A stretch of DNA of 52,363 nt from IMG/VR virus record IMGVR_UViG_3300037069_001879, positions 1-52,363 of that record. One strand, written 5' to 3'. Origin of the DNA: a virus (taxonomy: Duplodnaviria > Caudoviricetes). The translations under genes and the position numbers were made by a program. This document shows positions 10,592 through 47,874 of the stretch, piece after piece; position 1 is the stretch's first letter, and every line of letters begins with the position of its first letter. The notes under the pieces are model-generated. The model had not been told where the DNA came from, ran no database searches, and saw nothing but the letters and a program-made list of their open reading frames with translations.

Positions 10592-10624
10592 TGCTAATTT
10601 TTTTAAAATACACCTGTGTTAAAA

Positions 10625-10657
10625 TTTGGATTATGTGGCCCAAATCTTATAGCTTTG
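10625..10657 (+). promoter_or_regulatory. Bacteroidota sigmaA-type promoter, oriented antisense to the late operon
   Basis: TTTG-21 nt-TAGCTTTG matches the -33/-7 consensus. Confidence 0.45.
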
Positions 10658-10858
10658 CAATGCCACGCAGCTACGCGCCGGCACTTGCAAAAGCAGTTAT
10701 ATAAACTTTTTCATTTATAACTGTCTGATTATCAAACAGTTACGCAGGTTTACCCTCACCCTGTAGCCTCGACGGTTCATCTTATATTCGCTTGATAATC
10801 AAACCCTTATCACATACCTGCTTTGCCCCAAACATACACTTTATTTTTTTTAAATATA

Positions 10859-16168: not shown

Positions 16169-17224
16169 TTATGCAGTAGCAGGACCGGCTAATTCAGTTT
16201 TCAAAATTGGAGAGTAACGGTTTGCAGGATCGCTGTTGTAAGCAGTCACAAAGCAAATATCGGTGCTCCACTCATAGCCCTCTTTCTTAGTACGTGTCAG
16301 GCCGGTTGTACCAGCGTTTAATGCTGAGTAGTCCGCGCAATCTTCGTAATAATAAGTACCCATGTTGAGATCAACAATAGGCATTTGAGCCTGACCCCAC
16401 ACCTTTAAGCCGTTACCAACGGTGTTACCCATGATAGCGTCCCAATCGTTACGATTGTACACACCAACGAAACCGTCAGGGACAACAAACTGAGTGGATT
16501 TAACACCAGCGCCGTTGGTTATGCGATTGGTGTATTTCCAGTTGTAACCCAACATTTGGAAGCTCTCGTTTACGCCGTTAGCGTTACCCTGGCCTTTTAA
16601 ACGATCAACCAGCGGCATACCTGAGGTAGAGCTGATAACGTTTACCGAGCCATAGTAGTCGCGGACGTTTTGGATCGCGTTTAATTGATTGTAGTAGTCG
16701 TTTTTATCCTCGTCAGTTACCTGTAAAGCGTTCCCTACCTGTGGGTAGAAGCTCAGCAAGTCCGAAGGGAAATAAATATTTTTGTCGTTTTCCATTTTTG
16801 CAACGGCAGCAAGGTCAAGCACCGAAGCGAATTTTAACAAGTAAGCATCCAGTTTGCGGGTAAAGTCAGATTGGTATTTTACATCGTTATTTTTGTACTG
16901 AGCAGGCACCATTGTGAAACCAAACGAATAGGTTGCAAAGGTCAAGGCGATAATCCTTGAAGTGTTTTCCTGGTCGGCAATGGTACACGACCTCACGTTT
17001 GAAATGGTAACATTTGGCGCATCCAAAACAGGAACCTGAACTGTATTACCAAAACTTTCTTTTATGAATTTTTCGGTTTCAGGATCCAAAATGCTATTTG
17101 GTAGCGCGGATTGCTTTTGAAAGAAATCCCAGGCGCCGTACTGAGAGGCGCGCAATTCGTTTTTGTCCAAACGTGCTGCGTACTGAGCGCGTAGTGGTTG
17201 CATCAAGGTATTAACTAATGACAT
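16169..17224 (-). CDS. Major capsid protein
   Basis: 351 aa, follows the scaffold-like gene, has its own promoter and terminator; N-terminus (MSLVNT...LDKNELRASQYGAWDFF) resembles B40-8/B124-14-type capsid proteins from recall. Confidence 0.82.
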   Translation of the reverse strand: MSLVNTLMQPLRAQYAARLDKNELRASQYGAWDFFQKQSALPNSILDPETEKFIKESFGNTVQVPVLDAPNVTISNVRSCTIADQENTSRIIALTFATYSFGFTMVPAQYKNNDVKYQSDFTRKLDAYLLKFASVLDLAAVAKMENDKNIYFPSDLLSFYPQVGNALQVTDEDKNDYYNQLNAIQNVRDYYGSVNVISSTSGMPLVDRLKGQGNANGVNESFQMLGYNWKYTNRITNGAGVKSTQFVVPDGFVGVYNRNDWDAIMGNTVGNGLKVWGQAQMPIVDLNMGTYYYEDCADYSALNAGTTGLTRTKKEGYEWSTDICFVTAYNSDPANRYSPILKTELAGPATA

Positions 17225-17264: not shown

Positions 17265-17372
17265 GCGCCTCTATCCCATGAAGTGCGGGTATAAAAATGG
17301 TATAACTAATTTCGGTTTATCTCTTAACCGGTTAGTTATACCACAAACATAATTTATTTTTTAATAACCAAA
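17265..17372 (-). promoter_or_regulatory. Capsid gene promoter and structured 5' leader with two ANGRGAUA-loop hairpins
   Basis: TTTG-17 nt-TATGTTTG; hairpins at 17301-17340 and 17265-17286. Confidence 0.6.
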
Positions 17373-22328: not shown

Positions 22329-23861
22329 TTAATTTTCTACGGTCATACCTTTTCTTTCCGCGGTCAGCTCAAAAGCGTAACGCATCATTATGGTGTCTGC
22401 AAAGTCAGGCGACATGCCACCAAGTATATTTTTCTGTTCCTCTTTGTCGTTAATCTGCTTTTTGCCCTCTTTGTCGATCTCAGCGCGTTTAATCGCGAGG
22501 AGCTGCTTTTTAATCAGATCGCGAATTTCCCAAAGTTTGCCTCCGACCTTTACCTGTGTGCCAAGATAACCCGTAGTCGCTGAGTTGTCATATATCATAC
22601 AGGTTTCCCTGTTAAGGTTTATCCTGATCTGCCCTTTATTGATAATCTCCTCACAAACGCGGTAGTAACATTGCGTTTTAAAGTTCTTATAATTTTCCTT
22701 GATGCGGCTATCGGGATCCTTAACAGCAGGGTTACCGCCTTTGAAACCTTTATAGCCTCCAAGCGCAACGGCTCCACCACCAACGCCGTCCTGATCCACG
22801 ATAACGTCCGATTTCATAACGTTAAACTTGCGCCTCAGTCCCTCAATGCAAGTAACTATGTCGTTAACATCTGATTTGACGTACACGACAATATAAACCA
22901 CCTCCCAGCCTTTCCACACGAATATTACGCAAAGGTCGCGGCCAAAACGGGCAGCATCACACGTTATAAAGCGCCTTGGACGGTCATTCTGTTCAGGATA
23001 GTTGCTGTAAATGTCCTGCAAGCGCGGATAGTCAACCAACCCTAAGCCGTCCAGCCTGATCTTCCAGTTACCGTCAAGCAAGCGCGTTTTAATATCCTCA
23101 TCCTGTGATAAGAGGTTACCCAGGTAGCCAGGGTCAATGTCAAGCAGGATATTGTTTTCATAGATCGAACCAGGGATAAAGGATACTGACTTTATAAGGT
23201 CGCTCATATTCCTATCCCTCAGTTTTTCGTTATTGAAAATGTGCGGACATTTCTCTATGACCTCGCGAGGTGTATCGCCCCATACGTATCTGCCATTGTC
23301 CTGTATCATATAGCGTAACACGCCAGCGCGTTCAGGGATAGGAAATCCTGTTTCTTGGTTGATCCACCATTCGAGAAGCTCCGCCACCCAACTATCGGGG
23401 TCAGGGTTGCAACCAGCACGAATGTAAGGGCGGATGCCGCACTCAGACCTGTTCCTGCTGAGCATATAAAAAAACTGTTCCTTGGTGAAGTGGGTAAGCT
23501 CGTCAAAGCCAATAAGGCAGATTTGCGACCCTTGCCAGTCCAAAACGTTCTTGTCATACTCTAAGTGCGAAAACTTTAATTTGCAGCCAGCGGGGAAACG
23601 CCAGGTTAGTCTGCTTTCGATCGGCGTGGCTCCTACAAGTGGAAAGAGCTTCATGGACGTGTCCCAAAGGCCGCCTTCGCTCGTTATTTGCGGCGAGGTT
23701 CGACGAAAGTAAACCGCACCAAACTTTGGATTGTCTGCGTGTCGCAAGTACTCCATGAGCATCACGAATGTTTTACCGCAACCCGCTGAACCTCCCATTA
23801 TTAAAATGTCCGCTGGACTCGCAAGGGCAGCCTCCTGGAAACCGGGTTGGGGTTTAATCAT
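22329..23861 (-). CDS. terL: Terminase large subunit
   Basis: PQPGFQ, Walker A GGSAGCGKT, Walker B IGFDELTHF, CNPD, nuclease motifs DAARFGRD and SPDFAD. Confidence 0.96.
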   Translation of the reverse strand: MIKPQPGFQEAALASPADILIMGGSAGCGKTFVMLMEYLRHADNPKFGAVYFRRTSPQITSEGGLWDTSMKLFPLVGATPIESRLTWRFPAGCKLKFSHLEYDKNVLDWQGSQICLIGFDELTHFTKEQFFYMLSRNRSECGIRPYIRAGCNPDPDSWVAELLEWWINQETGFPIPERAGVLRYMIQDNGRYVWGDTPREVIEKCPHIFNNEKLRDRNMSDLIKSVSFIPGSIYENNILLDIDPGYLGNLLSQDEDIKTRLLDGNWKIRLDGLGLVDYPRLQDIYSNYPEQNDRPRRFITCDAARFGRDLCVIFVWKGWEVVYIVVYVKSDVNDIVTCIEGLRRKFNVMKSDVIVDQDGVGGGAVALGGYKGFKGGNPAVKDPDSRIKENYKNFKTQCYYRVCEEIINKGQIRINLNRETCMIYDNSATTGYLGTQVKVGGKLWEIRDLIKKQLLAIKRAEIDKEGKKQINDKEEQKNILGGMSPDFADTIMMRYAFELTAERKGMTVEN

Positions 23862-23878
23862 AGTTTACAAACATAATT

Positions 23879-23997
23879 AAAAAAGGCCTGCACGTGGGTA
23901 CAAACCTTTTTTACTATCTCCCCATTTGTCGGAATCCTAAACAACATTGCTATGGATGATGCATATAACATTGCGGGTTGTCCGTAAAGCAAATGTA
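23879..23997 (-). ncRNA. Candidate small RNA 2 (promoter to terminator, no ORF)
   Basis: -7 box TACATTTG at 23997-23990; terminator hairpin with G.U pairs at 23881-23910. Confidence 0.3.
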
Positions 23998-24000
23998 AAC

Positions 24001-24096
24001 AAAAAAGGGAGCGTTGGCAAATCTGCTACCTACGCATCCCTTTCGGTCATTTACGCTAAAAATGAGTTCCTTCAAATATACTGCATTGCAAATGTA
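24001..24096 (-). ncRNA. Candidate small RNA 1 with a UUAGCGU-loop hairpin
   Basis: -7 boxes TACATTTG/TATATTTG, hairpin TCATTT-TTAGCGT-AAATGA, terminator GGGATGCGTAGGTAG..TTGCCAACGCTCCC-T6. Confidence 0.4.
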
Positions 24097-24112
24097 TATT
24101 CCTAATAATTTA

Positions 24113-24319
24113 TTAGACCGCCGTGGCTGAATACGCCATTGCCGAGTACGCGGACTTGTCTTTGTAAACATAGCCGTAAATACTAAACGCCTGGTCTATG
24201 GCGTCCTGCTCGTTTTCTGCTTTAAACGTGGCGGGCCTAATCTGCGGTTCCTCCATGGCGGTCAAACAAGGAGCTTTTTGACCTTTGATTTCGATAAAAA
24301 CATTCCAATTAATTGTCAT
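24113..24319 (-). CDS. Hypothetical protein
   Basis: Last ORF of a tightly packed leftward early operon. Confidence 0.55.
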   Translation of the reverse strand: MTINWNVFIEIKGQKAPCLTAMEEPQIRPATFKAENEQDAIDQAFSIYGYVYKDKSAYSAMAYSATAV

Positions 24320-24707
24320 GGTGCTTATATTTTGGTTTATGTGTGTGCAGGTTAAACTGCTTATTTACCTTGTCGATCATTTCGGACAAGGTTTCAGTGG
24401 ACATACCAAGTATGCCCGGTCCATTCAGGGCTCTCATTAAAACGGCGCGTAACAATAACAACTCGTCAGCGTCGAACAGCGCGCCGCTCAGCTCGTCAAA
24501 GGCAAACGCTTTAAGCTCGCCCAGGAAGATAACCTTATCTGAGTGCGCCTTTATCCACTCAATGTCCTCGAGGTGTTTTTCCATTCCAGGCTCGTTTACT
24601 ATGGCAATCGTAAAATCATTACCGATCTCCTCATGGGGAAACAGTTTGGTAACGGTTCTGTAAAGTTGGTTCCAGGACGCGAAGCCCTCAGGTAGTTTTC
24701 TGTCCAT
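24309..24707 (-). CDS. Hypothetical protein
   Basis: Overlapping-gene operon packing. Confidence 0.6.
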   Translation of the reverse strand: MDRKLPEGFASWNQLYRTVTKLFPHEEIGNDFTIAIVNEPGMEKHLEDIEWIKAHSDKVIFLGELKAFAFDELSGALFDADELLLLRAVLMRALNGPGILGMSTETLSEMIDKVNKQFNLHTHKPKYKHHDN

Positions 24708-25056
24708 TTATTTTGTTTTTGCTGGTTAATATCTCTTGAAAGTTTAAATATTTCTTGCAGGTGTAAACGCTGAAATACAGCGTCCAAAAGCCTGGTTTCT
24801 CGCCCTTTGTCAGAACGTCCTTAAGTTTCTTGCCTTCCCAACGCTGAGTTAAAAAGGTTATGTTAAAAAAGCCCGACACCTGTAATTTGCTTGGATCCTC
24901 CGTCTGCTCAACCATATAGGTCTTATCCTTTATGAAGTTGCCGCGTATTTCTACAATCTCGCAGGCTTGCTCAGGGTGTGCTGCCCAGCTCCAGGTGTCT
25001 TTACCGCTGGTCGTCGCGTTCGACTTGTAAATAAAAGTTCGCTTAGATTTTTCCAC
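24688..25056 (-). CDS. Hypothetical protein
   Basis: Operon packing. Confidence 0.55.
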   Translation of the reverse strand: MEKSKRTFIYKSNATTSGKDTWSWAAHPEQACEIVEIRGNFIKDKTYMVEQTEDPSKLQVSGFFNITFLTQRWEGKKLKDVLTKGEKPGFWTLYFSVYTCKKYLNFQEILTSKNKINGQKTT

Positions 25057-25267
25057 CTTTAAGTGCTGCCTTTAAATTTTGGTCGTACACGCTGAGCACC
25101 TCGCTTGCAAGCTTTAGGATTTCATGGGCGCGGCTTTGATCGCGGCCATTGTTTGGTATCCTATATTGTGTTATGCACTGTTTTAAAGCAGCGACATAGT
25201 TAGCCAACAGCCCTGTGGGCATCAGGCGCAATGCCTTGTACAGGATTTGTTTTTCGATCTCTTCCAT
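25043..25267 (-). CDS. Hypothetical protein
   Basis: Coupled TAATG start. Confidence 0.55.
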   Translation of the reverse strand: MEEIEKQILYKALRLMPTGLLANYVAALKQCITQYRIPNNGRDQSRAHEILKLASEVLSVYDQNLKAALKGGKI

Positions 25268-25464
25268 TATACTGTGTAATTAATTTGCTTTTTGTCAAGG
25301 ATCCAGGTTTCGATCTCAATCCGCTGAGTATTAGGATCCCACGATCTCACGCAGGCGTCCGGTATCCAATGAATTTGTGTATTCTTTAGCTGCAAACGCC
25401 AGGCTTTGTCGCTTCGCTGTAACAGGGCTTTAATCGTAAGGTTTGCGGTTTGGTTGCTGCTCAT
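25267..25464 (-). CDS. Hypothetical small beta protein
   Basis: SDKAW...WIP...ETWI pattern common in small phage proteins; ATGA coupling. Confidence 0.6.
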   Translation of the reverse strand: MSSNQTANLTIKALLQRSDKAWRLQLKNTQIHWIPDACVRSWDPNTQRIEIETWILDKKQINYTV

Positions 25465-26129
25465 ATACCAAATTTTATTTTAACCACCTCGACAATGGTT
25501 AAGTATGCCTTAGCAAAAACATTATCGGCATGCGTTCTTATAACCTGAGCTATAAATTCCTCAAGCGTACCAAAGAAGCAACCGCAAACGACCTTTATTA
25601 ACTTGTCTTTACACTTAAAAAAGGTGGTTGATCTGTTTTCGGATCCAAAGTTTTGAAATACGCAGTAATCATTGTTGGATTTAATTTCTGCATTACCGCA
25701 AACCCATGCATTACCGCAAACCCGTGCATTACCGTAAACCTCTGCATCACCGGAAACCCATGCATTACCGTAAACCCGTGCATTACCGCAAACCTCTGCA
25801 TTACCGCAAACCCATGCATTACCGCAAACCCGTGCATTACCGTAAACCTCTGCATCACCGGAAACCCATGCATCACCGGAAACCCATGCATTACCGTAAA
25901 CCCGTGCATTACCGCAAACCTCTGCATTACCGTAAACCTCTGCATCACCGGAAACCCATGCATTACCGTAAACCCGTGCATTACCGTTCGGCGTGTTTTC
26001 CGCGTCCACCCAGCCACCTAAGTCGCCAGGGTTGGCATACTTGGTTTTTTTGGTACATTTAATTCTGAATAGCTTAATACCAAAAACGTTTACTTTGGTT
26101 TCGCTGGTTAGTTCATAATATTTTTCCAT
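25461..26129 (-). CDS. Hexapeptide-repeat (left-handed beta-helix) protein, common phage family
   Basis: KLFRI...GDLGGWV N-domain, tandem G[ND]AxVx repeats, C-terminal VVCGCFFGTLEEF. Confidence 0.85.
   Translation of the reverse strand: MEKYYELTSETKVNVFGIKLFRIKCTKKTKYANPGDLGGWVDAENTPNGNARVYGNAWVSGDAEVYGNAEVCGNARVYGNAWVSGDAWVSGDAEVYGNARVCGNAWVCGNAEVCGNARVYGNAWVSGDAEVYGNARVCGNAWVCGNAEIKSNNDYCVFQNFGSENRSTTFFKCKDKLIKVVCGCFFGTLEEFIAQVIRTHADNVFAKAYLTIVEVVKIKFGI
25689..25985. repeat. 18-bp coding tandem repeat (about 16 units)
   Basis: GCATYACCGNAAACCYNT units; explains the spurious repetitive ORFs in other frames. Confidence 0.9.
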
Positions 26130-26135
26130 TGCCTT

Positions 26136-26279
26136 TTACTTATTGGTGATTTGGTTAATTAATGAGTTACCGCGTTTTAACGAAGCCGCCAACGCTGCTA
26201 TACTTGCAGGTGTTACACCTTGTATTTTGTTGCGGATTTCTATGCGTTTAGCTTCGGCCTGTGGGTTGGTGGTTTTCAT
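26136..26279 (-). CDS. 47-aa hypothetical protein (not in the ORF track)
   Basis: MKTTNPQAEAKRIEIRNKIQ...; ATGA-coupled to the upstream ORF and fills the operon gap. Confidence 0.55.
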   Translation of the reverse strand: MKTTNPQAEAKRIEIRNKIQGVTPASIAALAASLKRGNSLINQITNK

Positions 26280-26446
26280 AATGCTGGGTAAAGTTTGTTA
26301 CCGTTTTCTAAATAAACATTTGATTTGTGAATTGAACGCAGACGGTTACCGTTAGGTGAGTGGTAATAATAGGTTTCGTTTTTACCCTTACCTTTTATCA
26401 CTTCGATTTTTTCTCCTGTTAGTTGATTGATTGCGTACATTTTCAT
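26276..26446 (-). CDS. Hypothetical protein
   Basis: First gene after the leftward promoter; start moved to ATG 26446. Confidence 0.5.
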   Translation of the reverse strand: MKMYAINQLTGEKIEVIKGKGKNETYYYHSPNGNRLRSIHKSNVYLENGNKLYPAL

Positions 26447-26463
26447 TATCATTAATTCGATGT

Positions 26464-26568
26464 ACAATAATAGGCACAATTATTTAATCTACCAAATTTA
26501 TTTTAAAATATTTTTTAAAATTTATTTTGTTTTTTATTTGGTGGTATGGAACCATATACCGACATTTG
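26464..26568. promoter_or_regulatory. Divergent early promoters flanking a conserved 29-bp AT box
   Basis: Leftward TTTG-20 nt-TATTATTG, rightward TTTG-20 nt-GACATTTG; box at 26492-26520. Confidence 0.65.
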
Positions 26569-26736: not shown

Positions 26737-26757
26737 TCACTTATTCATTACGCTAAA

Positions 26758-27195
26758 ATGAAAACAGTATTTTTCACAATCGCAACCAACAACATCCTCA
26801 GGATAGCCAGCTCAAAAGACTATCCTATAGGTAAAGAGGTTGCAGAAGGTCTAAACCATTTAATTGATATGACCCGCGACGCCAATGGTAAAAGGCCTGA
26901 GCTTAGCCTCGAGGACTTTGAATTTATCCACCAACATTTAAGGGTTAGCTTATTTTTTGAAAACGATCAATCCGAAGGTGTAAATAATTTGGTGCTACCG
27001 CTTCGCGACTTTCGCAAATGGATCGTTTGGAATGGTAAAGCTATTTGGCATAACCAACAGCAAGGTGTTTTGGCCTGGGCTGAGACCTTTGCCGAAGAGG
27101 TAAACACCTCCTGCGTTCGCGAATACCTTAACGATATTTGCATGGGTCGTGTGTGCTATAAACAAGCTGAGTTTACTATCCACAGCGAGGAATAA
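26758..27195 (+). CDS. Hypothetical protein
   Basis: 145 aa in the rightward early cassette. Confidence 0.6.
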   Translation: MKTVFFTIATNNILRIASSKDYPIGKEVAEGLNHLIDMTRDANGKRPELSLEDFEFIHQHLRVSLFFENDQSEGVNNLVLPLRDFRKWIVWNGKAIWHNQQQGVLAWAETFAEEVNTSCVREYLNDICMGRVCYKQAEFTIHSEE

Positions 27196-29642: not shown

Positions 29643-30206
29643 TTATAGGTTCTGCTCAACATCGGGAGTAAGGTTACGGTTATTCTCAGGTAAATAGATT
29701 TGGACAGCCGTTTCGGTTTTCTTTTGTTTATTGTCCTCAAGGTAACCACCTGTATGCTTCATAAGCTTTTCAATCGCGTCCATTTTGTCGTAAAACTCCA
29801 CTTCGATCTCGCCCGTCTTACGGTGGATTTTATATTTTTTGATGTACTTACCCACCTTTTGCAGGTCTTTCAGGTCTTTGGTGTAGAATTTACCAGCGTC
29901 TTTACCTGTACCCTCTCTCAGCGTGTCAAAAGGATTGATCGTTAAAACAGCTTTAAGCTCCTCCACCAGCATTTGCACACTCACAAAGTTTTCGTCCTTA
30001 ACGCGCTCTTGGATTGCAGCAATGTACGCCTTAACATTTTCGTTATGCAGCAGCTTCCAGCCCATACGCGAAGGAATAGGTGTAATGTAGCCCGCATCCA
30101 ATATGCTCTGGTTAAGGTTTCCCGTTTTCACATACTGGTAAACGAAATCCTTAATCTTTTGGCTTTTTATTTTGCGCTCAATGGCGGTAAAGTCGCTGAG
30201 TGTCAT
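29643..30206 (-). CDS. terS: Terminase small subunit
   Basis: FVYQYVKTGNLNQSILDAGY...KLLHNENVKAYI HTH, DKMDAIEKLMKHTG, terminal IYLPENNR. Confidence 0.85.
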   Translation of the reverse strand: MTLSDFTAIERKIKSQKIKDFVYQYVKTGNLNQSILDAGYITPIPSRMGWKLLHNENVKAYIAAIQERVKDENFVSVQMLVEELKAVLTINPFDTLREGTGKDAGKFYTKDLKDLQKVGKYIKKYKIHRKTGEIEVEFYDKMDAIEKLMKHTGGYLEDNKQKKTETAVQIYLPENNRNLTPDVEQNL

Positions 30207-30224
30207 AGCTGCAAATATAATTTA

Positions 30225-30515: not shown

Positions 30516-31838
30516 TTAAAACTTTAATGAGGTATCTAAATCAAACATCGTAACCAGTTTTTTAACCATTGGGTGTTCCAGTGTTGTCAGGTGTTTTTCA
30601 ACCAACGGCATTAATTCGTCGTACACTCGCGAGCTTACCCCATACCCATAACGCTCATGGATAAACTTTTCCGCCTTTTGCCTTACAGAAATTACAGGCT
30701 TTTCTTTATTTTCCTCTCGGTTTTGTATTTCTTGACCGATTTTCAAGAAATCAAGAGTTTTGACCATATTTTTGTCACCCGCCCCTGTTTCAACCCTTGA
30801 AGGGAGGGTTAGGTTGGCTAAGTCGGGCATTAACACTAATTCGGGCGGTGGCTCATTCACCACATAATCTGCAAGGTCTGACCCATCGTTAATATCGGGA
30901 TACCGATCGAAAAAATGAACCCTGCATCCGCGCTCAACCAAACGATCTTTAACACTCACATAATCAGGCTCCAGCTCACCGTCCTCGCTAATCTCTTTCC
31001 TACCCGTCTGTTCATTTAACTTCTTTCGCATAGGCAGCAGTCCCCACGTTGCACGGGCTGAGTATGCAAAATCGGGACACAATAAAACGTCCTGACCTGC
31101 TAACGCCGAAAGCTTTTCATCAGTAAATCCGTGCATGCCACAGCAAGCAAGCCAAACCAACGGCCTATTGTTCCAAGTGGGAAAGTAGACCGAACAAATG
31201 ATTGCCGTCTTTTCAGCCTCGACCACGGCAAAGGTCGCCGTCTTTGGAGCATCATAAATGAGGTGTTCACCAAATAGACATGGTACATATCCTTTGTCGA
31301 TTGTAAATAAACGCTGTGAGGGTGGGTTAAAAGTCTTATCCCTATGCCCATCGGGCTTGTAATGAATTTTTTGCGCTGTTCGGATACGATAGAGGTTATC
31401 CAGTTGCCAAAAGATCGTGCCGTTTTGTTTCGCGGTTCCAATGAAGTATAATCCCTTGAGCGTTTCCACAGTCTCGGGGGAAAAAATAGTAAGTAGGTAA
31501 GTAATAAAATTGTTATGCTCATAGTGCTGTAATGTTTGGTTAAGGATCGCTTTGTCAACCGTAATAATCCTCGCTTTTACAGGTTCGTCGTAGGTTACTT
31601 TGATGCGGTAGTTTTCCGCGTCGCCTTGCCCGTTCGCTTTAAGCCACTCCCAGGGGGTTGATACATAACCACAATTATCCTCGCGGTCGCACTTTCCAAA
31701 ATGCTCAGGTAGATACTGATTGGTTTGAAAGTCGTAAAACTGGACATAACGCTTGTGGCCACATTGGGGGCATTTGAATTTTTTGGCGGCGTGTCCTGGA
31801 ACGCTTTTGTCGTACTGGTAACGGTGCTGCTCAGCCAC
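30516..31838 (-). CDS. Zn-finger/Toprim primase (Bacteroidota DUF6371 type)
   Basis: CPQCG, GKCDREDNCGY, TIFWQLD, CLFGEHL, VVEAEKTA, GSDLADY. Confidence 0.8.
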   Translation of the reverse strand: MAEQHRYQYDKSVPGHAAKKFKCPQCGHKRYVQFYDFQTNQYLPEHFGKCDREDNCGYVSTPWEWLKANGQGDAENYRIKVTYDEPVKARIITVDKAILNQTLQHYEHNNFITYLLTIFSPETVETLKGLYFIGTAKQNGTIFWQLDNLYRIRTAQKIHYKPDGHRDKTFNPPSQRLFTIDKGYVPCLFGEHLIYDAPKTATFAVVEAEKTAIICSVYFPTWNNRPLVWLACCGMHGFTDEKLSALAGQDVLLCPDFAYSARATWGLLPMRKKLNEQTGRKEISEDGELEPDYVSVKDRLVERGCRVHFFDRYPDINDGSDLADYVVNEPPPELVLMPDLANLTLPSRVETGAGDKNMVKTLDFLKIGQEIQNREENKEKPVISVRQKAEKFIHERYGYGVSSRVYDELMPLVEKHLTTLEHPMVKKLVTMFDLDTSLKF

Positions 31839-36469: not shown

Positions 36470-36946
36470 TTAAAATAATGAGGTTTGATAATGTGCAGGA
36501 TTGTTGTCAAAATCCTCCCAGTTAAATTCTTTGAGCTGTTTGAAATTGTGTATCTCGTCGCGTGTATGATGCAATACATTGGCAAGACCTTTATAATTTA
36601 CCTCACCGTGTTTTAGCATCTCCTCGAGCATTTTAGCCATTCGTAAAACGTCAACGTTGCGGGATTGGTTTTCTATCATATTAATGGTTATACTATCAGC
36701 AGCGGTAAGGTTTTCAAAAACAAAGCATATCGCGTGTGTTATGCCCAAATCTTTAAGCGCCCTTAAAATGTCATTGCCGGCAACCAAAAAATATTCATTA
36801 AGTATATACTCAACCAATATGGGTTTAAATTGTCCATAACGCTTAACAATACAGTTGGTTACATGCTGCTCGTGTTTGGTTCGCTTGCTATGTTTAATAA
36901 GGTCGGTATTATATCCCAGGTCCTCAACGGGTATTATTTTAATCAT
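36470..36946 (-). CDS. ParB/Srx N-terminal-like domain protein
   Basis: I.RYGQFKPILV...LVAGN..LRALKDLG...IEN; ATGA-coupled to dpdA. Confidence 0.7.
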   Translation of the reverse strand: MIKIIPVEDLGYNTDLIKHSKRTKHEQHVTNCIVKRYGQFKPILVEYILNEYFLVAGNDILRALKDLGITHAICFVFENLTAADSITINMIENQSRNVDVLRMAKMLEEMLKHGEVNYKGLANVLHHTRDEIHNFKQLKEFNWEDFDNNPAHYQTSLF

Positions 36947-37821
36947 AATGCTAAGTTTCCTTCCCAATCTATACCCCTGTACATCCAGAGGTCGGTAAAA
37001 AAATATTCAAGCTGTTTATAGTGAGTGCAGGCCCATTCCTCTTTTACCTTGATCTCCTCGGGTTTGCGGAATGAATTGTGCATAAATATAGGAATGTTGC
37101 TCCTGATAAAGTGATCCTTTACAGGCGCGCAGGATAGCATCCTACCATTATTAAAAATCTGAAAAACGCCATACCTGACAACGGTACACCAACTGGAGCT
37201 ATCTACTGAGTAAAAAGGAAAGTCATACAGCAGATCGGCGCGCGTGAACGCGAAACCATGAACCTTTACCTTGGCATCATACGCTTTTTTCAAATAGCGA
37301 TTGTAGGGCAACATTGGTTGGCTTGGCCGGATGCCCTCTAACCCTATATATCCACTATGCGAAGTATCCAGCAGCTCGTCAAATTCGCGCTCGGTATTTG
37401 AGCTGTGAAAAACAGTTATGCACTTGTCGTAAACGCCCTCCGCTGCCATGATCTCGCGCCACTCGGTTACGCGCTTTTGACCCACAACCTCCTGCAAGTC
37501 AAGCTCCACGAAGTAGTCAAAATAGTTATACCATTCTTTTACCCATTCAAGGTATTTGGCAAAATACACCTCAGGATCCTGCTGAGCTTTTTTACCTTTT
37601 TTCTCTTTCTTGCCCGTAACCGACACGCCCATTTGTTCAAAAAAACTATGGGCGCCACTATCAATGGTTATAATACCCGTGTGGCCTTTTGGTTTTAAGT
37701 TTGGCAGCTCAGCGTTTACCTTTTTGTGGTAGAAGTAAGTAAGGAACAAGTTGCTATCCAAAGGCAGCTCAATTTTATAACTGGACTTTTGCGTTTCATA
37801 CGCTGCAAAGTAAATCCTCAT
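36943..37821 (-). CDS. dpdA: DNA-guanine transglycosylase DpdA (TGT-fold)
   Basis: IDSGAHSF, FVELD, VFH, YIGLEG, KVHGFAFT, FYSVDSSSW..RYG; context of folE/queD/queE. Confidence 0.85.
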   Translation of the reverse strand: MRIYFAAYETQKSSYKIELPLDSNLFLTYFYHKKVNAELPNLKPKGHTGIITIDSGAHSFFEQMGVSVTGKKEKKGKKAQQDPEVYFAKYLEWVKEWYNYFDYFVELDLQEVVGQKRVTEWREIMAAEGVYDKCITVFHSSNTEREFDELLDTSHSGYIGLEGIRPSQPMLPYNRYLKKAYDAKVKVHGFAFTRADLLYDFPFYSVDSSSWCTVVRYGVFQIFNNGRMLSCAPVKDHFIRSNIPIFMHNSFRKPEEIKVKEEWACTHYKQLEYFFTDLWMYRGIDWEGNLAL

Positions 37822-38828
37822 ATAAGCGATTTAACAGCGTCCATAATTACGTCCACATTATTCAGCACACCCGCAGGCTGCGGAGCCGCGCAATCGACAA
37901 GCTCCAGCGTGTCGTCGATCTCGGCCTCATTATCGTACAGGTTCATAATTGGAACAAACTCATTATAGCAGGCGCGATTGGGCGCCACGATCATACAGTC
38001 ATAGTACAAAGCTTCCTGCAGGGTGTAACCAAACGTCTCCTGGCGCGCTGTTGATAGATACCATTTTGCCTGATCGAGGATTTTATAATACTGCTGTTTT
38101 GAGAGATCGAAATAATAATCCACATTTTCCATGCCCGCAAACTGTTCGCATAGCTTGTCTTTTTTGCCGCAGGATGTAATTACTATTTGGTGTGCTGTTT
38201 CCATGGCGAAGCGATAAAGCACGTCCATGCCTTTTTCGTGACAAAGACGGTGTGGCCAAATAATATAAGGCGCTTTAGGTAACGAGCCTTTTTTATGGAC
38301 GCTTTCGCACCACTCAGGGCTCCAGGGCTGACCTGTGTTTTTTACTTTATGAAGCGGTTGGCGAAAATAAGAAATAACCCGCTGTCTGTGAAACTCGCTA
38401 CCTACCAATATAAGGTCGCAAGCATCGTGCCACCCTTGCTCTGAGCTGTCGGCCCATTTATCAAGGTTACGCACAAAGTCCATGTTATCAGCGCGACCTG
38501 CATGGTTAAATGCAGCGATTGACACGCGAATACCAAGCAGCTCAGCCATATATTTAACAGACTCCAGGCCAGGAAAAAATATGTCACCAAATAGGAATAT
38601 GTCGCCCGTTTCTATTTGGCCCTCCTTGAACATATAGGCTATAATACCCAGTTGCTCAGTTTTATAACGTATGGTACCTGCAATGTCTAAAAACTGCCCA
38701 TTGGTTATTTTACTGTATCCGCTGCCTGGGTTGATCGTCAAATTACAGCGAGGAGATAGAACGTCAAAAACCATTCCCGAATACCGTTCTTCCAGCGGCT
38801 CAACCGGGACAAAAATTATTTTGCTCAT
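37818..38828 (-). CDS. GT-B fold glycosyltransferase (GT4-like)
   Basis: WPHRL..EKG, STARQETFGYTLQEA, APNRACYNE; ATGA-coupled to dpdA. Confidence 0.85.
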   Translation of the reverse strand: MSKIIFVPVEPLEERYSGMVFDVLSPRCNLTINPGSGYSKITNGQFLDIAGTIRYKTEQLGIIAYMFKEGQIETGDIFLFGDIFFPGLESVKYMAELLGIRVSIAAFNHAGRADNMDFVRNLDKWADSSEQGWHDACDLILVGSEFHRQRVISYFRQPLHKVKNTGQPWSPEWCESVHKKGSLPKAPYIIWPHRLCHEKGMDVLYRFAMETAHQIVITSCGKKDKLCEQFAGMENVDYYFDLSKQQYYKILDQAKWYLSTARQETFGYTLQEALYYDCMIVAPNRACYNEFVPIMNLYDNEAEIDDTLELVDCAAPQPAGVLNNVDVIMDAVKSLI

Positions 38829-38844
38829 TTGTTTTGTTGTTAGC

Positions 38845-39309
38845 TTATTCGCATCGGTCGCCTGTTTGTTTGTAACGAAACCAAGGGATGAATCCTTTCG
38901 GTGTCCAAAAACCCCATTGCCTAACTTTTTTAAGTGTCAGTACAAGAGTCCAAACGGGCTTTTCAATTTCTAATTTATGTTTAAACTCTGCAGGTCTGTA
39001 AAGCAATGAACCTGCTTTAAAATACTTGGCAACCTTGCGCTTTTTGCTGCCCCAAGGCTGTGGCGTGTGATCTTTGTATATATCCTCCTCTGAGTGCTCC
39101 AGGTAGCCGCCTTTTAATATGAAGCTATAAAACGCCCAAGGGTGATCGTGTAAACAATCGTCGTCGGAAAGTATTATTTTATGAATTTTAATGGAAAACC
39201 ACTTGCATTGAAAAATGTTCCACCTGATAAGATATTCCTCGTTATCGTTTCGCGTAATAATACGCTTGCTCAAAAACTTCATTAGGGCTATGCTTTTAAT
39301 TTTATCCAA
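38845..39309 (-). CDS. Cupin-fold protein
   Basis: LHDHPW.FYSFILKGGYLE...H.L metal-binding cupin motifs. Confidence 0.75.
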   Translation of the reverse strand: MDKIKSIALMKFLSKRIITRNDNEEYLIRWNIFQCKWFSIKIHKIILSDDDCLHDHPWAFYSFILKGGYLEHSEEDIYKDHTPQPWGSKKRKVAKYFKAGSLLYRPAEFKHKLEIEKPVWTLVLTLKKVRQWGFWTPKGFIPWFRYKQTGDRCE

Positions 39310-39791
39310 CCATAAGAAATTAGATCGTCAATGGATAAGTCCAGGTAATCAAGGGCTACACCTTTAGATTCCAGGTATTGGTACTGCTTGACTGAAACCT
39401 TACTAAAGTCTTTTGAGCCGTCCAAAAAGGCAACCTCACATTTTACATACTTACCATTGGTTTGTAACCACTGAAATAATACAGTTGGAATATCTTTATA
39501 TTTTTTGTCGAAAGACACGACCGATAATCCTTCCCTGTAATTTAACTGCATGGTTATAAGCTCAGTATATTCCTCGTCGGTTATACTGGACGCGGAGCGC
39601 AGATTTAACCAAACCTTGCTTAATGGTACGCCGCTAAAGCCGCTTTCCCCGACTTTATATAACGCGCTGTTTTCGTACACGCCAAGCATTATTTGTTTCT
39701 TGGTTTTAGCATTGAAATTATATTCCATTTCCTGACCTATGTGGTGGCCAAAAAATTTAACCTTGTTTTCAATCGTGTTTGCGGTTTTCAT
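39288..39791 (-). CDS. Hypothetical protein
   Basis: LNLRSASSITDEE...YQYLESKGVAL; operon packing. Confidence 0.6.
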   Translation of the reverse strand: MKTANTIENKVKFFGHHIGQEMEYNFNAKTKKQIMLGVYENSALYKVGESGFSGVPLSKVWLNLRSASSITDEEYTELITMQLNYREGLSVVSFDKKYKDIPTVLFQWLQTNGKYVKCEVAFLDGSKDFSKVSVKQYQYLESKGVALDYLDLSIDDLISYGWIKLKA

Positions 39792-39794
39792 GGC

Positions 39795-40172
39795 TTATAT
39801 GGGTAGGTGGTTGAACATTTGTACTTCGGCGCCGTTTTCGCCGTCCTCTAATACTGAGCAACTTTCCAACTCAAAGTTTTTAGCGACAAGCAGCGCAATA
39901 GTTTCGCAGCTCATGGAGCCAAAATTAAGCTCGTCGGAGCTCTCTTTAAAGATTGGCAAACTGTCCTTAAGGAACTTGGTAATGTCACGCTTTAAGGTAA
40001 TAATCTCCACATCCCTATCCTCGTGTGTTACCACTTTTTTGGCCCGTATATGGAAAACGTGTCGGTGAAGCAAGCGCAGGTAACTAACTTCGGGAAACGG
40101 ACACTGGGGCCAACAATGCACCCCCGCAATTTGCAGGGATGCCATTACTACTGTTTGGTGATCTCTTGCCAT
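39795..40172 (-). CDS. dpdL: QueD-like T-fold protein with LxxxHRHxF motif (DpdL-like)
   Basis: GVHCWP, LRLLHRHVF, HEDRDVE, SCE.IA, V.EDGENGA; a second QueD paralogue beside the canonical queD. Confidence 0.7.
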   Translation of the reverse strand: MARDHQTVVMASLQIAGVHCWPQCPFPEVSYLRLLHRHVFHIRAKKVVTHEDRDVEIITLKRDITKFLKDSLPIFKESSDELNFGSMSCETIALLVAKNFELESCSVLEDGENGAEVQMFNHLPI

Positions 40173-40915
40173 TACTTAGCTATTTCCTGGGCTTTAACAA
40201 TGTCCCGCACTCTCTCGGCTTTTGCAGCCTTGTCAGGGTTTTTGGTGTAATCCTTAATCACGTTACGGATGTGACTTTCAACGCTGCACTCGATTATTTC
40301 CATAATCTCTTTAATGGTTTTCTTGTTGTCGCTATGCTCTAACCATATTTTTTGGCTTTTGCTCAGCTCTGTTGGTGTTGCAGGTTTAGCAGCTTCTTTT
40401 TTAGGCTTACCTGTGATCGCCTCGGGCTGGTATAACTCGTTAAAAATCTGCTCAGTATCCACCCAATCACGGCTACCAGTATCGCTGGTTAAACGAACCT
40501 TTATTTTATCGCCCTTTGCTTCTTTAGCACACACGGCGCCGGTGGTAGCGTTGCGAAACTGACCGTCCGAAGTAACCTCATAACGAGAGTATTTTGGGAT
40601 CCTTTTCGCTTTGCTTGGCTCAGGCATTGGCGGCGTGGCCGGAACGGTTGGCGTGGTGGGCGCGGCTGCTGGTGTTCCACCGATTGCATCCTCAAACGAG
40701 GTGGATGTGTCGGTGTCGGTTTTTGGAGCCTTCGGCGCTTTCGGTGTTTTGGGCTCTTTTTTCTCCCATGTTGCAAGCGTTTCGATTTTCAGATACCTTT
40801 TACCGGCAACCTCAATTTCTGAGTTGATTGGCTCGATGCCTGGTTTAAGGGTAAATTCTTTAACCTCTGATTTTAATAACAAGCCTTCGGCGGCTGTTGG
40901 TTTTGCTGTTTTCAT
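40172..40915 (-). CDS. Protein with NUMOD4-like domain, P/T/K linkers and C-terminal HTH-like region
   Basis: IPKYSRYEVTSDGQFRN; no HNH motif seen. Confidence 0.55.
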   Translation of the reverse strand: MKTAKPTAAEGLLLKSEVKEFTLKPGIEPINSEIEVAGKRYLKIETLATWEKKEPKTPKAPKAPKTDTDTSTSFEDAIGGTPAAAPTTPTVPATPPMPEPSKAKRIPKYSRYEVTSDGQFRNATTGAVCAKEAKGDKIKVRLTSDTGSRDWVDTEQIFNELYQPEAITGKPKKEAAKPATPTELSKSQKIWLEHSDNKKTIKEIMEIIECSVESHIRNVIKDYTKNPDKAAKAERVRDIVKAQEIAK

Positions 40916-40988
40916 TTTTTAAATTTTTAGCGTTTAAATTGTTGCTGTTACTTAGTGAGTGTAAATAACGGTACAATAAACCACTTAA

Positions 40989-41017
40989 CCAAATTTATTT
41001 TAAAATATTTTTTAAAA
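40989..41017. promoter_or_regulatory. Conserved 29-bp AT box overlapping the -33 element of a leftward promoter
   Basis: CCAAATTTATTTTAAAATATTTTTTAAAA is identical to 26492-26520 and 45184-45212. Confidence 0.7.
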
Positions 41018-41018
41018 T

Positions 41019-41564
41019 TTATTTTAAATGACTAAAAAACTCCTGCTTAACCGCCGGGTTATCTTTAAAGTTACCCAACAGGGCGCAGGTAACGGTTTCG
41101 CAGTTATGTTTTTTGACACCACGCATTTCCACGCAAAGGTGCCTTGCTGTGATCTGAACCGCTACGCCCTTAGGGTCAAGCTTGTCAAATAAGAAATCGG
41201 CAACCTGCGTGGTTATGCGTTCCTGGTTCTGCAATCTACGCGCGAAGTGATCTAACACCCTGGGCAGCTTGCTCAGCCCTACAATAAACTCGCCAGGGAT
41301 ATAAGCAATAGAGGCGGTTCCAAAAAAGGGCGCCATGTGGTGTTCGCATAAACTGAAAAAAGGAATATTCTTAACCACCACCATTTCGTCGTAATTCTCA
41401 CCTTCAAATACCGTCATTTCAAATTTATCAACGGTAAGAAACTCAGTAAGGAATTTTACATAACGTCTTGGTGTGTCACGCAAGCCCTCGCGTGTGCTAT
41501 CGTCGAAACAGTCAATTAGTTGTTTAACCGCCCTTTCGGCGTTCGTTTTAGTTTGCTCGGTCAT
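41019..41564 (-). CDS. folE: GTP cyclohydrolase I
   Basis: REGLRDTPRR, SLCEHHMAPFFG, GLSKL.R, QNQERIT, HLCVEMRGV. Confidence 0.97.
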   Translation of the reverse strand: MTEQTKTNAERAVKQLIDCFDDSTREGLRDTPRRYVKFLTEFLTVDKFEMTVFEGENYDEMVVVKNIPFFSLCEHHMAPFFGTASIAYIPGEFIVGLSKLPRVLDHFARRLQNQERITTQVADFLFDKLDPKGVAVQITARHLCVEMRGVKKHNCETVTCALLGNFKDNPAVKQEFFSHLK

Positions 41565-41761
41565 TAGTCCTTGATCGTATAGTTTTCGTTAACAAATTCA
41601 GTTACTTTTTCAAGGATTGCCTCGATTGCAGCATCATACCTATTAATAGTCAGGCATTTAGTTTCGTCGCCGCCCTTAGTAAAAAGAGCTGTGGAATTTT
41701 CGTGAACGATCTCCATTATATCCTGTCTTAGGAATGGATCGATCTCAATTTTCTGTCCCAT
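41564..41761 (-). CDS. Hypothetical protein
   Basis: Fills the gap between queE and folE; start ATG 41761. Confidence 0.55.
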   Translation of the reverse strand: MGQKIEIDPFLRQDIMEIVHENSTALFTKGGDETKCLTINRYDAAIEAILEKVTEFVNENYTIKD

Positions 41762-41765
41762 GGTG

Positions 41766-42524
41766 TTATACTCCTGTTTTTTGATTCCATACTGAGATAT
41801 GGATCCTGTGTGAATAATTATAACCAAATTCAAGGGCCAGTCCTACAATGCTCTCAGCCATTGCGTCCAGCTCGTTTCTATTGTCAGCGGCAGCCATAAG
41901 GTACACCTGTGATTGGTACATTATATCCTGTATGTAGGTTTTTTCGATCTCTAAAAGATCGGCGCGATCTTTAACCACGAATTTAAAGCAGGTTTTTGGG
42001 CCACGAAAAGAAAGAGCCTCAATTACCTCGCGTTTAACCCTTTTAAAGTAAGGCTCACCACTGTTTTGCAGCTTAGGGCTGACATTCCAAAACTTAACCA
42101 GCGAAAACAGTTTATCACTGGGCATTATAGTACCGTTTGTTTCGATCTCAACCGTTAAGCCAGGTATACCAATATCCAAGGACAAGTACTTTATAAAATC
42201 ATAAATACTATCCTGCTGCAAAAGTGGTTCACCACCCGTTATTATAAGGTGGGCGCCTTGTTGTAGGTTAGATATAAACGCCCTGCCCCCCATGTCATCC
42301 ACGAGCTGATTAAAGGTTACCGACTTACCTTTTAACCAAACCTCGATGCTGTCACAACGCCAGGTGGCGCCATTGTGTAACTGTCCATCGCGCTCAGTAC
42401 CTTTGCCGCCACACATAAGGTTACAGCCTGCAAGACGTAAAAAATAAGCTCGTTTTCCGGCTGTCTGCCCTTCGCCCTGAACGGATAAAAAATGCTCAGC
42501 GACGGCAATGGTTTCTTTGTTCAT
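41766..42524 (-). CDS. queE: 7-carboxy-7-deazaguanine synthase (radical SAM)
   Basis: F.SVQGEG..G..AYFLRLAGCNL.C...CDS, ITGGEPLLQ, IETNGT, VSPK, KFVV. Confidence 0.95.
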   Translation of the reverse strand: MNKETIAVAEHFLSVQGEGQTAGKRAYFLRLAGCNLMCGGKGTERDGQLHNGATWRCDSIEVWLKGKSVTFNQLVDDMGGRAFISNLQQGAHLIITGGEPLLQQDSIYDFIKYLSLDIGIPGLTVEIETNGTIMPSDKLFSLVKFWNVSPKLQNSGEPYFKRVKREVIEALSFRGPKTCFKFVVKDRADLLEIEKTYIQDIMYQSQVYLMAAADNRNELDAMAESIVGLALEFGYNYSHRIHISVWNQKTGV

Positions 42525-42751
42525 TATTTGGATGTTTTTTCAAGGTTGCTAATTTCACGCGCAAGGTACCATTGAGCTTTTTTTAAATCTTCAATGGTTT
42601 TAGAGGTATCTTTTTTACCGGCACGTGATATATATTTTACAGTGTTACCCAAGTTAAAACCTAAGTTTTGATCCTCAATATAATCTATAACCTCTATCTT
42701 GCCAGAATTATAATGAGAAGGGTGGTTTACATTATTATTGTCCATATCCAC
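42524..42751 (-). CDS. DUF3310 family protein
   Basis: VNHPSHY..GKIEVIDYI...GN.VKYI.RAGKK...EDLKKA.WYL. Confidence 0.92.
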   Translation of the reverse strand: MDMDNNNVNHPSHYNSGKIEVIDYIEDQNLGFNLGNTVKYISRAGKKDTSKTIEDLKKAQWYLAREISNLEKTSK

Positions 42752-43382
42752 GTGCTTTTGCTATAATGGGTAAATTTTCTGTGAATATATCGCGAATAGC
42801 CTGCGCGATTAAACGCGCTTCTTTTTGCGCGTGTTCATCAAGGCGGATATCCAAAAAGTGTATCCAGCTACGTATTGAACCAGTCATAAAAATGGTAGTA
42901 CTGGAGCACATAGGTAATATCATACGGGCGCACTCTTTGGCAACACCCAAATCCAAAAGTATGTTATAAAGCTCCCGGCCTTTTTTAATGTAATCCGCTA
43001 TTTCAGCCGAAGCAGTTGCAGGTTTCAGGTCGCGGTCGCGGTAAATAAGTGGGTCAATCAAATCCGTACTGGATTGACGATTTATAACCGCTTGCTGCCT
43101 AAGCTCTATGGGCTCCATTTTTTCTACCTTGGAATAACGCTGAGAAAACTCCTGGAATGTAAAGCTACGGTGGCGCAAAAGCTGTATGCCTATCGCTTTG
43201 GAGGTTTCTATTTCGACGGTCATATAACTATGCTCGAAAGGGCTCCAATGTTTGTTTTTGATAAGGTAGTTTATCAAGTTTTCAAGGTGTTCGGTTTTGT
43301 CGCTTCGTGAGCTACTAACACGGGCGATCTCAACAATATTAACCTCTGCATCAGGGGTTAATGATTTAAGTTTTACATTCAT
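42735..43382 (-). CDS. thyX: FAD-dependent thymidylate synthase
   Basis: ARVS, HWSPFEH, QLLRHRSFTFQEFSQRY, KECARMILP, HAQKE. Confidence 0.96.
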   Translation of the reverse strand: MNVKLKSLTPDAEVNIVEIARVSSSRSDKTEHLENLINYLIKNKHWSPFEHSYMTVEIETSKAIGIQLLRHRSFTFQEFSQRYSKVEKMEPIELRQQAVINRQSSTDLIDPLIYRDRDLKPATASAEIADYIKKGRELYNILLDLGVAKECARMILPMCSSTTIFMTGSIRSWIHFLDIRLDEHAQKEARLIAQAIRDIFTENLPIIAKARGYGQ

Positions 43383-43384
43383 AA

Positions 43385-44800: not shown

Positions 44801-44905
44801 TTTCTTAGCGTTTTTTCTACTGGCAATGGCCACCTCTATGGGTGACCTTTGCACGGTGCTGTTCGCAGCTTCCTGTATTCAGGGATGCCCTACTGAGCAA
44901 GCTCT

Positions 44906-45121: not shown

Positions 45122-45157
45122 TTTGTTATGTTTTTAGCGTGTTTGTTAATGACATAA

Positions 45158-45212
45158 CAAAGATAGGAATAAAATGGTGTAATCCAAATTTATTTTAAAA
45201 TATTTTTTAAAA
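45158..45212 (-). promoter_or_regulatory. Consensus Bacteroidota promoter plus 29-bp AT box
   Basis: TTTG-19 nt-TATCTTTG. Confidence 0.8.
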
Positions 45213-45237
45213 AATTTTCTGGACTACACCAATTACA

Positions 45238-47850: not shown

Positions 47851-47874
47851 AAATTTAGCGTTTTAAATGTTCTA

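Follow-up and report, generated by a model that had tools for sequence, protein, structure and literature searches.

The question raised by positions 24,001–24,096 of IMG/VR virus record IMGVR_UViG_3300037069_001879 is why a small hairpin, lying between a promoter box and an intrinsic terminator on the minus strand of a gap between phage genes, should expose a loop that is the exact complement of a 7-nucleotide (nt) motif found just before five start codons elsewhere in the same genome. We analyzed the whole record of 52,363 nt (the window), which belongs to a tailed phage (Caudoviricetes). Our reading of its sequence is that 24096–24001 on the minus strand is probably, if by no means certainly, the gene for a trans-acting antisense small RNA (sRNA) that would block translation initiation at the genes carrying the motif ACGCUAA (ACGCTAA in DNA; hereafter the tag). 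The original prediction, made from the sequence alone, proposed that one trans-acting sRNA coordinates the early-to-late switch of this phage. The part of this proposal that stands is a minus-strand unit antisense to the tag at several starts: the tag is the top-ranked 7-mer of the start regions, its antisense copy is uniquely placed and a parallel arrangement exists in the Croceibacter phage P2559S. The early switch itself is not supported, as discussed below, and neither is the premise that the phage has no obvious repressor, for which protein scans covered 40 of ~70 proteins against PHROGs and 10 against Pfam.

The unit lies in a gap of 251 nt (23862–24112) that separates a 68-amino-acid (aa) open reading frame (ORF) from terL (Terminase_6N), with terL and all virion genes directly downstream. 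Its elements are as follows.

24089–24096, minus strand: upstream Bacteroidota-type -7 promoter box TACATTTG, a consensus match only
24073–24080, minus strand: proximal -7 promoter box TATATTTG, a consensus match
24047–24065, minus strand: seed hairpin, stem UCAUUU/AAAUGA (24065–24060 and 24052–24047) with the 7-nt loop UUAGCGU (24059–24053)
24001–24044, minus strand: intrinsic terminator, a G+C-rich bulged stem (24040–24007) followed by a U6 tract (24006–24001)

The -7 box, the hairpin with its loop and the terminator had all been called beforehand and each was recovered at its place, the unit measuring 66–85 nt. From the usual distance between a -7 box and the transcription start, the RNA is predicted to begin at ~24069–24065. 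The 66-nt RNA 24066–24001 folds as the seed hairpin plus the terminator (-23.8 kcal/mol, z-score -4.0, 0 of 200 shuffles as stable), and the seed hairpin is present in both the minimum-energy and the centroid folds of 66-, 70- and 85-nt RNAs. Two features looked for in a trans-acting base-pairing sRNA are present, namely an intrinsic terminator (G+C-rich stem and U6) and an accessible seed (a loop, UUAGCGU, complementary to five start regions). A simple terminator scan missed the terminator at 24001–24044, probably because its stem is bulged. Rfam yielded no family at the gathering threshold in the window, and only weak sub-threshold chance matches in 23700–24400.

On the minus strand the stop codon of the upstream operon (24113–24115) is followed by the boxes at 24096–24089 and 24080–24073, the seed hairpin, the terminator, a third box, a second terminator and a fourth box, and the terminator at 24001–24044 is also the first one after that operon. 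Boxes of the form TAnnTTTG number 72 in the genome, 18 of them within the 2,491 nt (of 52,363 nt) that are intergenic, a five-fold intergenic enrichment; four of these 18 lie on the minus strand of this single gap, two of them belonging to the RNA unit. Directly after the first unit stands a second box-to-terminator unit of ~105 nt (box 23997–23990, strong terminator 23913–23878, minus strand), which holds a 37-codon ORF (23971–23858) whose stop overlaps the terL ATG. The fourth box (23875–23868, minus strand) ends 6 nt before the ATG of terL, which suggests a nearly leaderless terL mRNA; in a relative, L002, a box lies 4 nt before the terL ATG. The ORFs of the gap (73 and 37 aa on the minus strand, 49 and 22 aa on the plus strand) were considered as genes and set aside as they look non-genic.

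The tag had been placed within about 20 nt upstream of the ATGs at 26758 (plus strand) and at 40915, 44800, 45121 and 47850 (minus strand), and all five copies were found there:

26744–26762, plus strand: target 1, tag at 26750–26756, 1 nt before the ATG at 26758 of a 145-aa gene that is second in its operon
40927–40933, minus strand: tag of target 2, 11 nt before the ATG at 40915 of a 247-aa gene, first behind an AT box
44805–44811, minus strand: tag of target 3, 4 nt before the ATG at 44800 of a 95-aa reading, a second gene with uncertain start
45134–45140, minus strand: tag of target 4, 12 nt before the ATG at 45121 of a 71-aa gene, first behind an AT box
47855–47861, minus strand: tag of target 5, 4 nt before the ATG at 47850 of a 63-aa gene, first behind an AT box and upstream of RecT

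The AT box is a 56-nt AT-rich promoter repeat (repeat family D2) with four copies in the window. As had been claimed, three tagged genes (40915, 45121 and 47850) come first behind an AT box, that is, at three of the four repeat copies. The copies and the operon that ends at the candidate RNA are:

26473–26528: AT-box copy 1, a divergent promoter region (repeat families D2 and I2)
40970–41025: AT-box copy 2, promoter region of target 2, 86% identical to copy 1
45165–45220: AT-box copy 3, promoter region of target 4
47882–47937: AT-box copy 4, promoter region of target 5
24113–26449, minus strand: upstream operon, with eight small genes, one of them beta-solenoid/bactofilin-like, and with the candidate RNA also serving as its 3′ untranslated end

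From AT-box copy 1, the operon that ends at the candidate RNA (26449 to 24113) runs leftward, and the operon with target 1 runs rightward. The last gene of the leftward, AT-box-driven operon is the 68-aa ORF, and none of its genes carries the tag. At target 1 the tag forms the loop of a hairpin that includes the AUG at 26758. This hairpin, which had been proposed at 26745–26761 as hiding the AUG, does fold as described (26744–26762) but is weak (-2.2 kcal/mol). The accompanying idea of loop–loop kissing is not supported, as only this one target has a hairpin, and a weak one.

Enrichment of the tag near starts had been suggested as a check, and it holds there but not genome-wide. Counting both strands, 13 copies of ACGCTAA were found against 9.2 ± 3.0 expected, and 14 of 100 shuffles reach 13. 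Six of the 13 fall in the 4.8% of the genome that is intergenic, and five of these six are in the sense orientation before ATGs. When all 14,848 7-mers in the windows from -25 to -1 of start codons were ranked by binomial p-value, ACGCTAA came first, with five of its 13 copies in such windows (p = 3.6e-7 with 69 curated starts; ~0.005 after Bonferroni correction), and it was again the top 7-mer with the 74 starts of an automatic gene call (p = 5.1e-7). All six intergenic copies, the five start-proximal ones and the antisense one, are invariant over 7 nt. Variants with one mismatch are hardly enriched at starts (6 of 188, p = 0.04), thus recognition of the tag appears to be strict. The tags before 26758 and 44800 belong to second genes of operons, are intercistronic and have no promoter box nearby. 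The tag thus follows start codons rather than promoters, and this placement points to a function at the RNA level. A weaker start-proximal motif was also observed, TCACCAAT, all three genome copies of which lie within 25 nt before starts (ATGs 26129, 47659 and 21002).

To evaluate the antisense copy, 4,426 intergenic 7-mer positions on both strands were tested as complements of G+C-containing motifs present at four or more starts. The complements found were the opposite strands of the targets themselves and the copy at 24053, which is the only one located in trans. A Markov model of the gaps expects 0.15 antisense copies across all gaps, and potential hairpin loops contain 17% of the gap 7-mers. 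A place 8–30 nt after a TAnnTTTG box and at most 70 nt before a terminator-like hairpin with a T-run is occupied by just 82 of the 4,426 positions, from which the chance expectation for an antisense copy in a promoter–terminator context is 0.0056. Contiguous complementarity of the RNA amounts to 11 nt at 40915, 11 + 7 nt spanning the AUG at 26758, 10 nt at 45121, 8 nt at 47850 and 7 nt at 44800, with one further 10-nt complementarity at the start of the virion-region gene 13698. The best duplex among 72 start regions is that at 26758 (-16.5 kcal/mol).

A parallel in another phage adds to this evidence. We applied the start-region k-mer pipeline to nine other Bacteroidota phage genomes (one of them partial and two near-identical to each other), and one of the nine has the same layout with different letters. 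It is P2559S (NC_018276.1), a cultured marine phage of Croceibacter, with a capsid protein 40.6% identical to that of the window. Its tag is CGAGAGC, usually as ACCGAGAGC, with 10 copies. Eight tags lie 1–9 nt before the annotated ATGs of gp02, gp04, gp20, gp31, gp40, gp49, gp51 and gp55 (p = 7.9e-14, 68 annotated genes), one copy lies 8 nt inside gp43, and a repeated AT-rich promoter stands before four of the eight genes with a tagged start. The features of P2559S are:

1508, 2007, 14333, 28260, 30682, 34176, 35888 and 37400: start tags, (A)CCGAGAGC, before the eight annotated ATGs
30526–30606: promoter–hairpin–terminator unit with a 69-nt candidate RNA at 30538–30606 on the plus strand

The single opposite-strand copy reads GCUCUCG on the sense strand and lies in the gp39/gp40 gap. 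Upstream, behind the stop codon of gp39, a TATATTTG box precedes it by 20 nt and is the same 8-mer as the proximal box of the window; downstream, a strong terminator follows at a distance of 14 nt. The predicted fold of the 69-nt RNA is a 5′ hairpin with the terminator behind it (-25.9 kcal/mol, z-score -4.4), and the RNA is complementary to the eight tagged start regions over 7–11 nt. By chance, 0.00028 such antisense copies are expected, a value that is still small after allowing for nine genomes. A complete IMG/VR relative of P2559S, 92–94% identical in aligned blocks, keeps the identical RNA, eight sense tags and one antisense copy. At the gp20 homologue of this relative the flanks and spacing of the tag have diverged and the tag is unchanged; the RNA itself, by identity profile, is conserved no better than the adjacent coding DNA. 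Pattern searches with the P2559S terminator and promoter found only P2559S and this relative. Five IMG/VR loci that share an 18-nt stretch with the P2559S seed lie inside unrelated sequence and were discarded as chance matches. The difference between the tags of the window and of P2559S argues against a conserved ribosomal RNA partner for the tag.

The reversed copy in P2559S also bears on what the copy at 24053 might be on its other strand. It could be the plus-strand start element of a 22-codon ORF (24062–24130) or the fossil of an inverted gene start, as the plus strand reads like target 1, with the same stem arms and an ATG 2 nt after the tag. That ORF has no plus-strand -7 box upstream and runs antisense through the promoter region and the gene end, and its ATG is accounted for by the hairpin stem, of which it forms part. 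Behind the reversed copy in P2559S there is no reading frame that starts with ATG, which removes the reading of an opposite-strand gene start. We therefore regard this explanation as highly improbable.

Another way to account for both orientations is that ACGCTAA/TTAGCGT is the DNA site of a phage transcription factor acting just downstream of promoters. In the promoter-proximal cases (24073, 45158 and 47875) the motif begins 14–18 nt after the -7 box, the inverted copy included, and the 5 versus 1 split in orientation is not significant alone. The tags at 26750 and 44805, however, and those of at least three P2559S sites (gp20, gp49 and gp51) are start-adjacent, inside operons and away from any promoter box. 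The motif is also an asymmetric 7-mer that stands alone, lacking a partner in a repeat or dyad, and its orientation is biased 5:1 in the window, 9:1 in P2559S and 8:1 in the relative of P2559S, with the lone reversed copy always in the promoter–terminator unit. A transcription factor site is thus very unlikely.

If the tag acts on RNA, its reader could still be a protein, either a translational repressor or an endoribonuclease in the style of RegA and RegB, with the antisense copy incidental. In phage T4, RegB cleaves early-gene start regions at GGAG, and RegA binds start regions rich in A and U (PMC3014915). Start-region motifs of early phage genes can thus be protein sites, and the scanned proteins of the window, 40 of ~70 against PHROGs and 10 against Pfam, all from outside the virion region, include many with no known function. 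Among these, no RegA- or RegB-like family was seen. A protein reader would predict neither of the antisense copies, for which the chance expectations are those given above for the window and for P2559S. The 7-nt invariance of six intergenic copies, together with near-matches that are hardly enriched, fits base pairing better than a typical protein site. A protein reader is accordingly a rather unlikely explanation, if one to be kept in mind.

The position of the gap raises the further possibility that the unit is a matter of transcript boundaries only, with a terminator for the upstream operon, tandem promoters for the late operon and a leader like that of lambda pR′–tR′ (6S RNA), subject to antitermination and with no role in pairing. 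The gap is directly upstream of terL and the virion genes, has four minus-strand -7 boxes and two terminators, and does present a promoter followed by a terminator upstream of a late operon, as a pR′–tR′-type leader would. A -7 box followed directly by a terminator-like hairpin also occurs before the capsid gene (17344). This explanation offers no reason for the exact complementarity between the loop and the top start-region motif. Moreover, terL has a -7 box of its own, as in L002; the P2559S unit is not upstream of late genes but between the early-type gp39 and gp40; and no antiterminator family was seen among the window proteins scanned. On balance we consider it quite unlikely that the unit serves transcript boundaries alone.

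Several observations weigh against the antisense sRNA that we favor. The ATG at 44800 is not the first start of its ORF, as an in-frame GTG lies upstream at 44854, and without this site the corrected significance of the tag is lost, with the intergenic clustering remaining. The seed hairpin by itself is weak and not significant (-3.6 kcal/mol, z-score -0.9), and the upstream operon needs the terminator at 24001–24044 anyway for its own end. Duplex energies separate the five genes poorly from the other start regions (ranks 1st, 3rd, 5th, 8th and 11th of 72), because the U-rich flank of the seed pairs with any A-rich leader. The tagged genes of P2559S are not all early and include a virion gene, which weakens the idea of an early switch. 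No close relative of the window was found in the collections searched, by TerL or by exact patterns, and eight of the nine other Bacteroidota phage genomes lack a tag/anti-tag pair.

The comparison with relatives can be given in full. The best TerL matches are 63% (L002) and 54% (L001 and L003) identical, with one partial Bryobacterales match at 57%. No start-region copy of ACGCTAA was found in L001 or L002, and the examined part of L002 has no enriched start-region 7-mer; its gap is structured (z-score -4.9) and without an analogous tag and anti-tag. Exact-pattern scans of viral contigs with the seed hairpin, AT box and terminator gave no matches, and a nucleotide search of the phage collection with the window gave only short unrelated ones. 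Among the nine genomes, no tag/anti-tag pair was found in P2559Y, TCUEAP2, FpV9-1.3, FPSV-S20A, phage 1/32 or tant8-1, and the Bacteroides phage B40-8 has only a borderline motif of the 5′ untranslated region (UTR), TAGTAACA, with no antisense copy. Since eight of the nine genomes are without the pair, the tag/anti-tag layout is sporadic among Bacteroidota phages, not general. In B40-8, TAGTAACA has four genome copies and lies ~23 nt after TAnnTTTGCA boxes in three 5′ leaders (19003, 20986 and 29449).

How an RNA of this kind could act depends on the host. Matches to the capsid protein (16169–17224) were found in 76 phage records, 75 of which are named for Bacteroidota hosts (Flavobacterium, 32; Bacteroides, 31; Parabacteroides, 6; Croceibacter, 4; Elizabethkingia, 1; Alistipes, 1), the other being a faecal phage; identity ranges from 30.5% to 40.8% among the matches listed. 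The start regions of the window are A-rich and without Shine–Dalgarno (SD) sequences, and window DNA, whole or in part, is present in five soil metagenome DNA runs, with no RNA run among those listed for it. Together with the intergenic TAnnTTTG boxes, these findings point to a soil phage infecting Bacteroidota. Bacteroidota ribosomes initiate without SD pairing, and what tunes initiation is the presence of adenines upstream together with a lack of structure (PMC6847099).

In such a host, an RNA of ~66 nt could arise by transcription from the -7 box promoter of the unit, by release of the 3′ end of the AT-box operon transcript, or in both ways. It would present UUAGCGU near its 5′ end, in a 7-nt loop flanked by a U-run, and loop and U-run may pair over 7–11 contiguous bases with ACGCUAA and the A-run that follows it, no more than ~20 nt from the AUG. 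This distance is taken to fall inside the footprint of the 30S subunit. Without SD pairing, initiation would require an unstructured A-rich leader, and pairing at this place would block 30S binding and perhaps speed mRNA decay. The outcome would be coordinated negative control of the tagged genes by a single RNA. The operon carrying the RNA is AT-box driven and untagged, which would fit a delayed negative feedback on the other AT-box operons. Transcription of the RNA, its pairing in the cell, its repressive effect and its timing are what we infer from the arrangement of sequence elements.

The candidate RNA can be compared with known systems. In the c4 RNA of phages P1 and P7, short exposed stretches pair with short complementary boxes at the ribosome-binding region of a phage mRNA and so prevent its translation; c4 arises by processing of the operon transcript that carries its targets, and it controls one operon in lysogenic immunity. 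It is a 77-nt trans-acting antisense repressor of ant (PMC8546580). Like c4, the candidate would be a small phage-encoded RNA acting in trans on sites not opposite its own gene, and its working mode would be most like that of c4. Unlike c4, it faces five tagged starts in four other operons or transcription units, in a host phylum without SD pairing. It does not belong to the c4 family, given that no Rfam match was found in the window and the targets are not on the operon of the RNA.

DapZ and MicL, which are bacterial and Hfq-dependent, are sRNAs of the 3′-UTR type that have their own promoter and share the terminator of an mRNA. Similarly, the candidate follows a stop codon directly, its promoter box falls within the 3′ region, and it shares a terminator with its parental operon. 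This class of 3′-UTR-type sRNAs is defined in a study of Bacteroides (PMC7366714), in which most intergenic sRNAs possessing a start site as well as a terminator were validated. The same study describes GibS of Bacteroides thetaiotaomicron, a chromosomal sRNA of ~145 nt with a long unstructured seed that represses by pairing with SD-less start regions, one of its targets being the second gene of a dicistron (PMC7366714). The candidate resembles GibS in its -7-box promoter, its intrinsic terminator, the seed in its 5′ part and the presence of second genes among its targets. It differs in being phage-encoded and ~66 nt long, in having its seed in a hairpin loop and in that its putative targets are the phage's own invariantly tagged genes.

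Among phage systems, lambda OOP and P22 sar are likewise short RNAs (68–77 nt) that base-pair with phage mRNAs, but these lie opposite a single, fully complementary target (PMC12197685), whereas the targets in the window are 2.7–24 kb away and matched over 7–11 nt. The candidate is thus not a cis-antisense RNA, its nearest target being 2.7 kb distant. The layout would share with T4 RegB and RegA the joint control of many early phage genes through a short start-region motif (PMC3014915). In T4 a protein reads the motif, which for RegB is the SD sequence itself (PMC3014915), whereas the window has an RNA complement.

It is also possible, although we put this forward quite tentatively, that the window and P2559S represent an undescribed class in SD-less Bacteroidota phages. 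Each lineage would have its own leader tag on a subset of its genes, at the position that an SD sequence would take, and one anti-tag RNA ending an operon, and tag and anti-tag would change together (ACGCUAA/UUAGCGU here, CCGAGAGC/GCUCUCGG in P2559S). The RNA might then be a master translational switch, or even, instead of repressing the tagged mRNAs, serve them as an activator or adaptor. In the portions available of the literature searched, no description was seen of a Bacteroidota-phage sRNA or of the ACGCUAA tag. Of the phage antisense RNAs used for comparison, each controls a single operon or gene, and none is from a Bacteroidota phage. If our reading is true, one RNA by which a phage addresses a set of its own genes, all marked by an invariant leader tag, would make a new kind of regulatory layout, and it would show a route to translation control where host ribosomes ignore SD sequences. 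As P2559S on Croceibacter atlanticus HTCC2559 is a cultured phage–host pair, the idea is directly testable there. For annotation, orphan promoter–terminator units in phage gaps are worth comparing with start-region motifs.

The remaining observations concern the genome as a whole. The window is a complete phage genome on a single contig. An exact 82-nt repeat occurs at both contig ends (bases 3–84 equal 52279–52360) and one large minus-strand ORF continues past both ends, from which it follows that the assembly is circular or permuted; the simplest account of the repeat is that such a genome overlaps itself in the assembly. A scan of the window for tRNA and tmRNA genes found none. The early region at 36943–43810 (minus strand) holds 7-deazaguanine genes (GTP cyclohydrolase, QueD-like, QueE-like and a DpdA-type queuine tRNA-ribosyltransferase-like gene), with thymidylate synthase adjoining, and this gene set suggests that the phage DNA is modified.

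A small-terminase-like gene (29643–30206, minus strand) lies ~6 kb from terL and has its own -7 box at 30212; one plus-strand operon and another minus-strand operon stand between the two. Upstream of the major capsid gene, at 17290–17351 (minus strand), the -7 box TATGTTTG is followed directly by a long terminator-like hairpin and U-run, an element that could be either a promoter-proximal terminator or a stabilizing 5′ stem. Besides a -7 box and a long leader, a gap of 267 nt (10592–10858, minus strand) before a gene of 1,307 aa contains two palindromic boxes that are nearly identical, GTTTGATTATCAAGC and GTTTGATAATCAGAC. Finally, within the operon upstream of the candidate RNA, fifteen tandem 18-nt units (25635–26030, minus strand) lie inside a 222-aa gene (25461–26129) that matches YdcK beta-solenoid and bactofilin repeats; similar DNA is found in unrelated phages.

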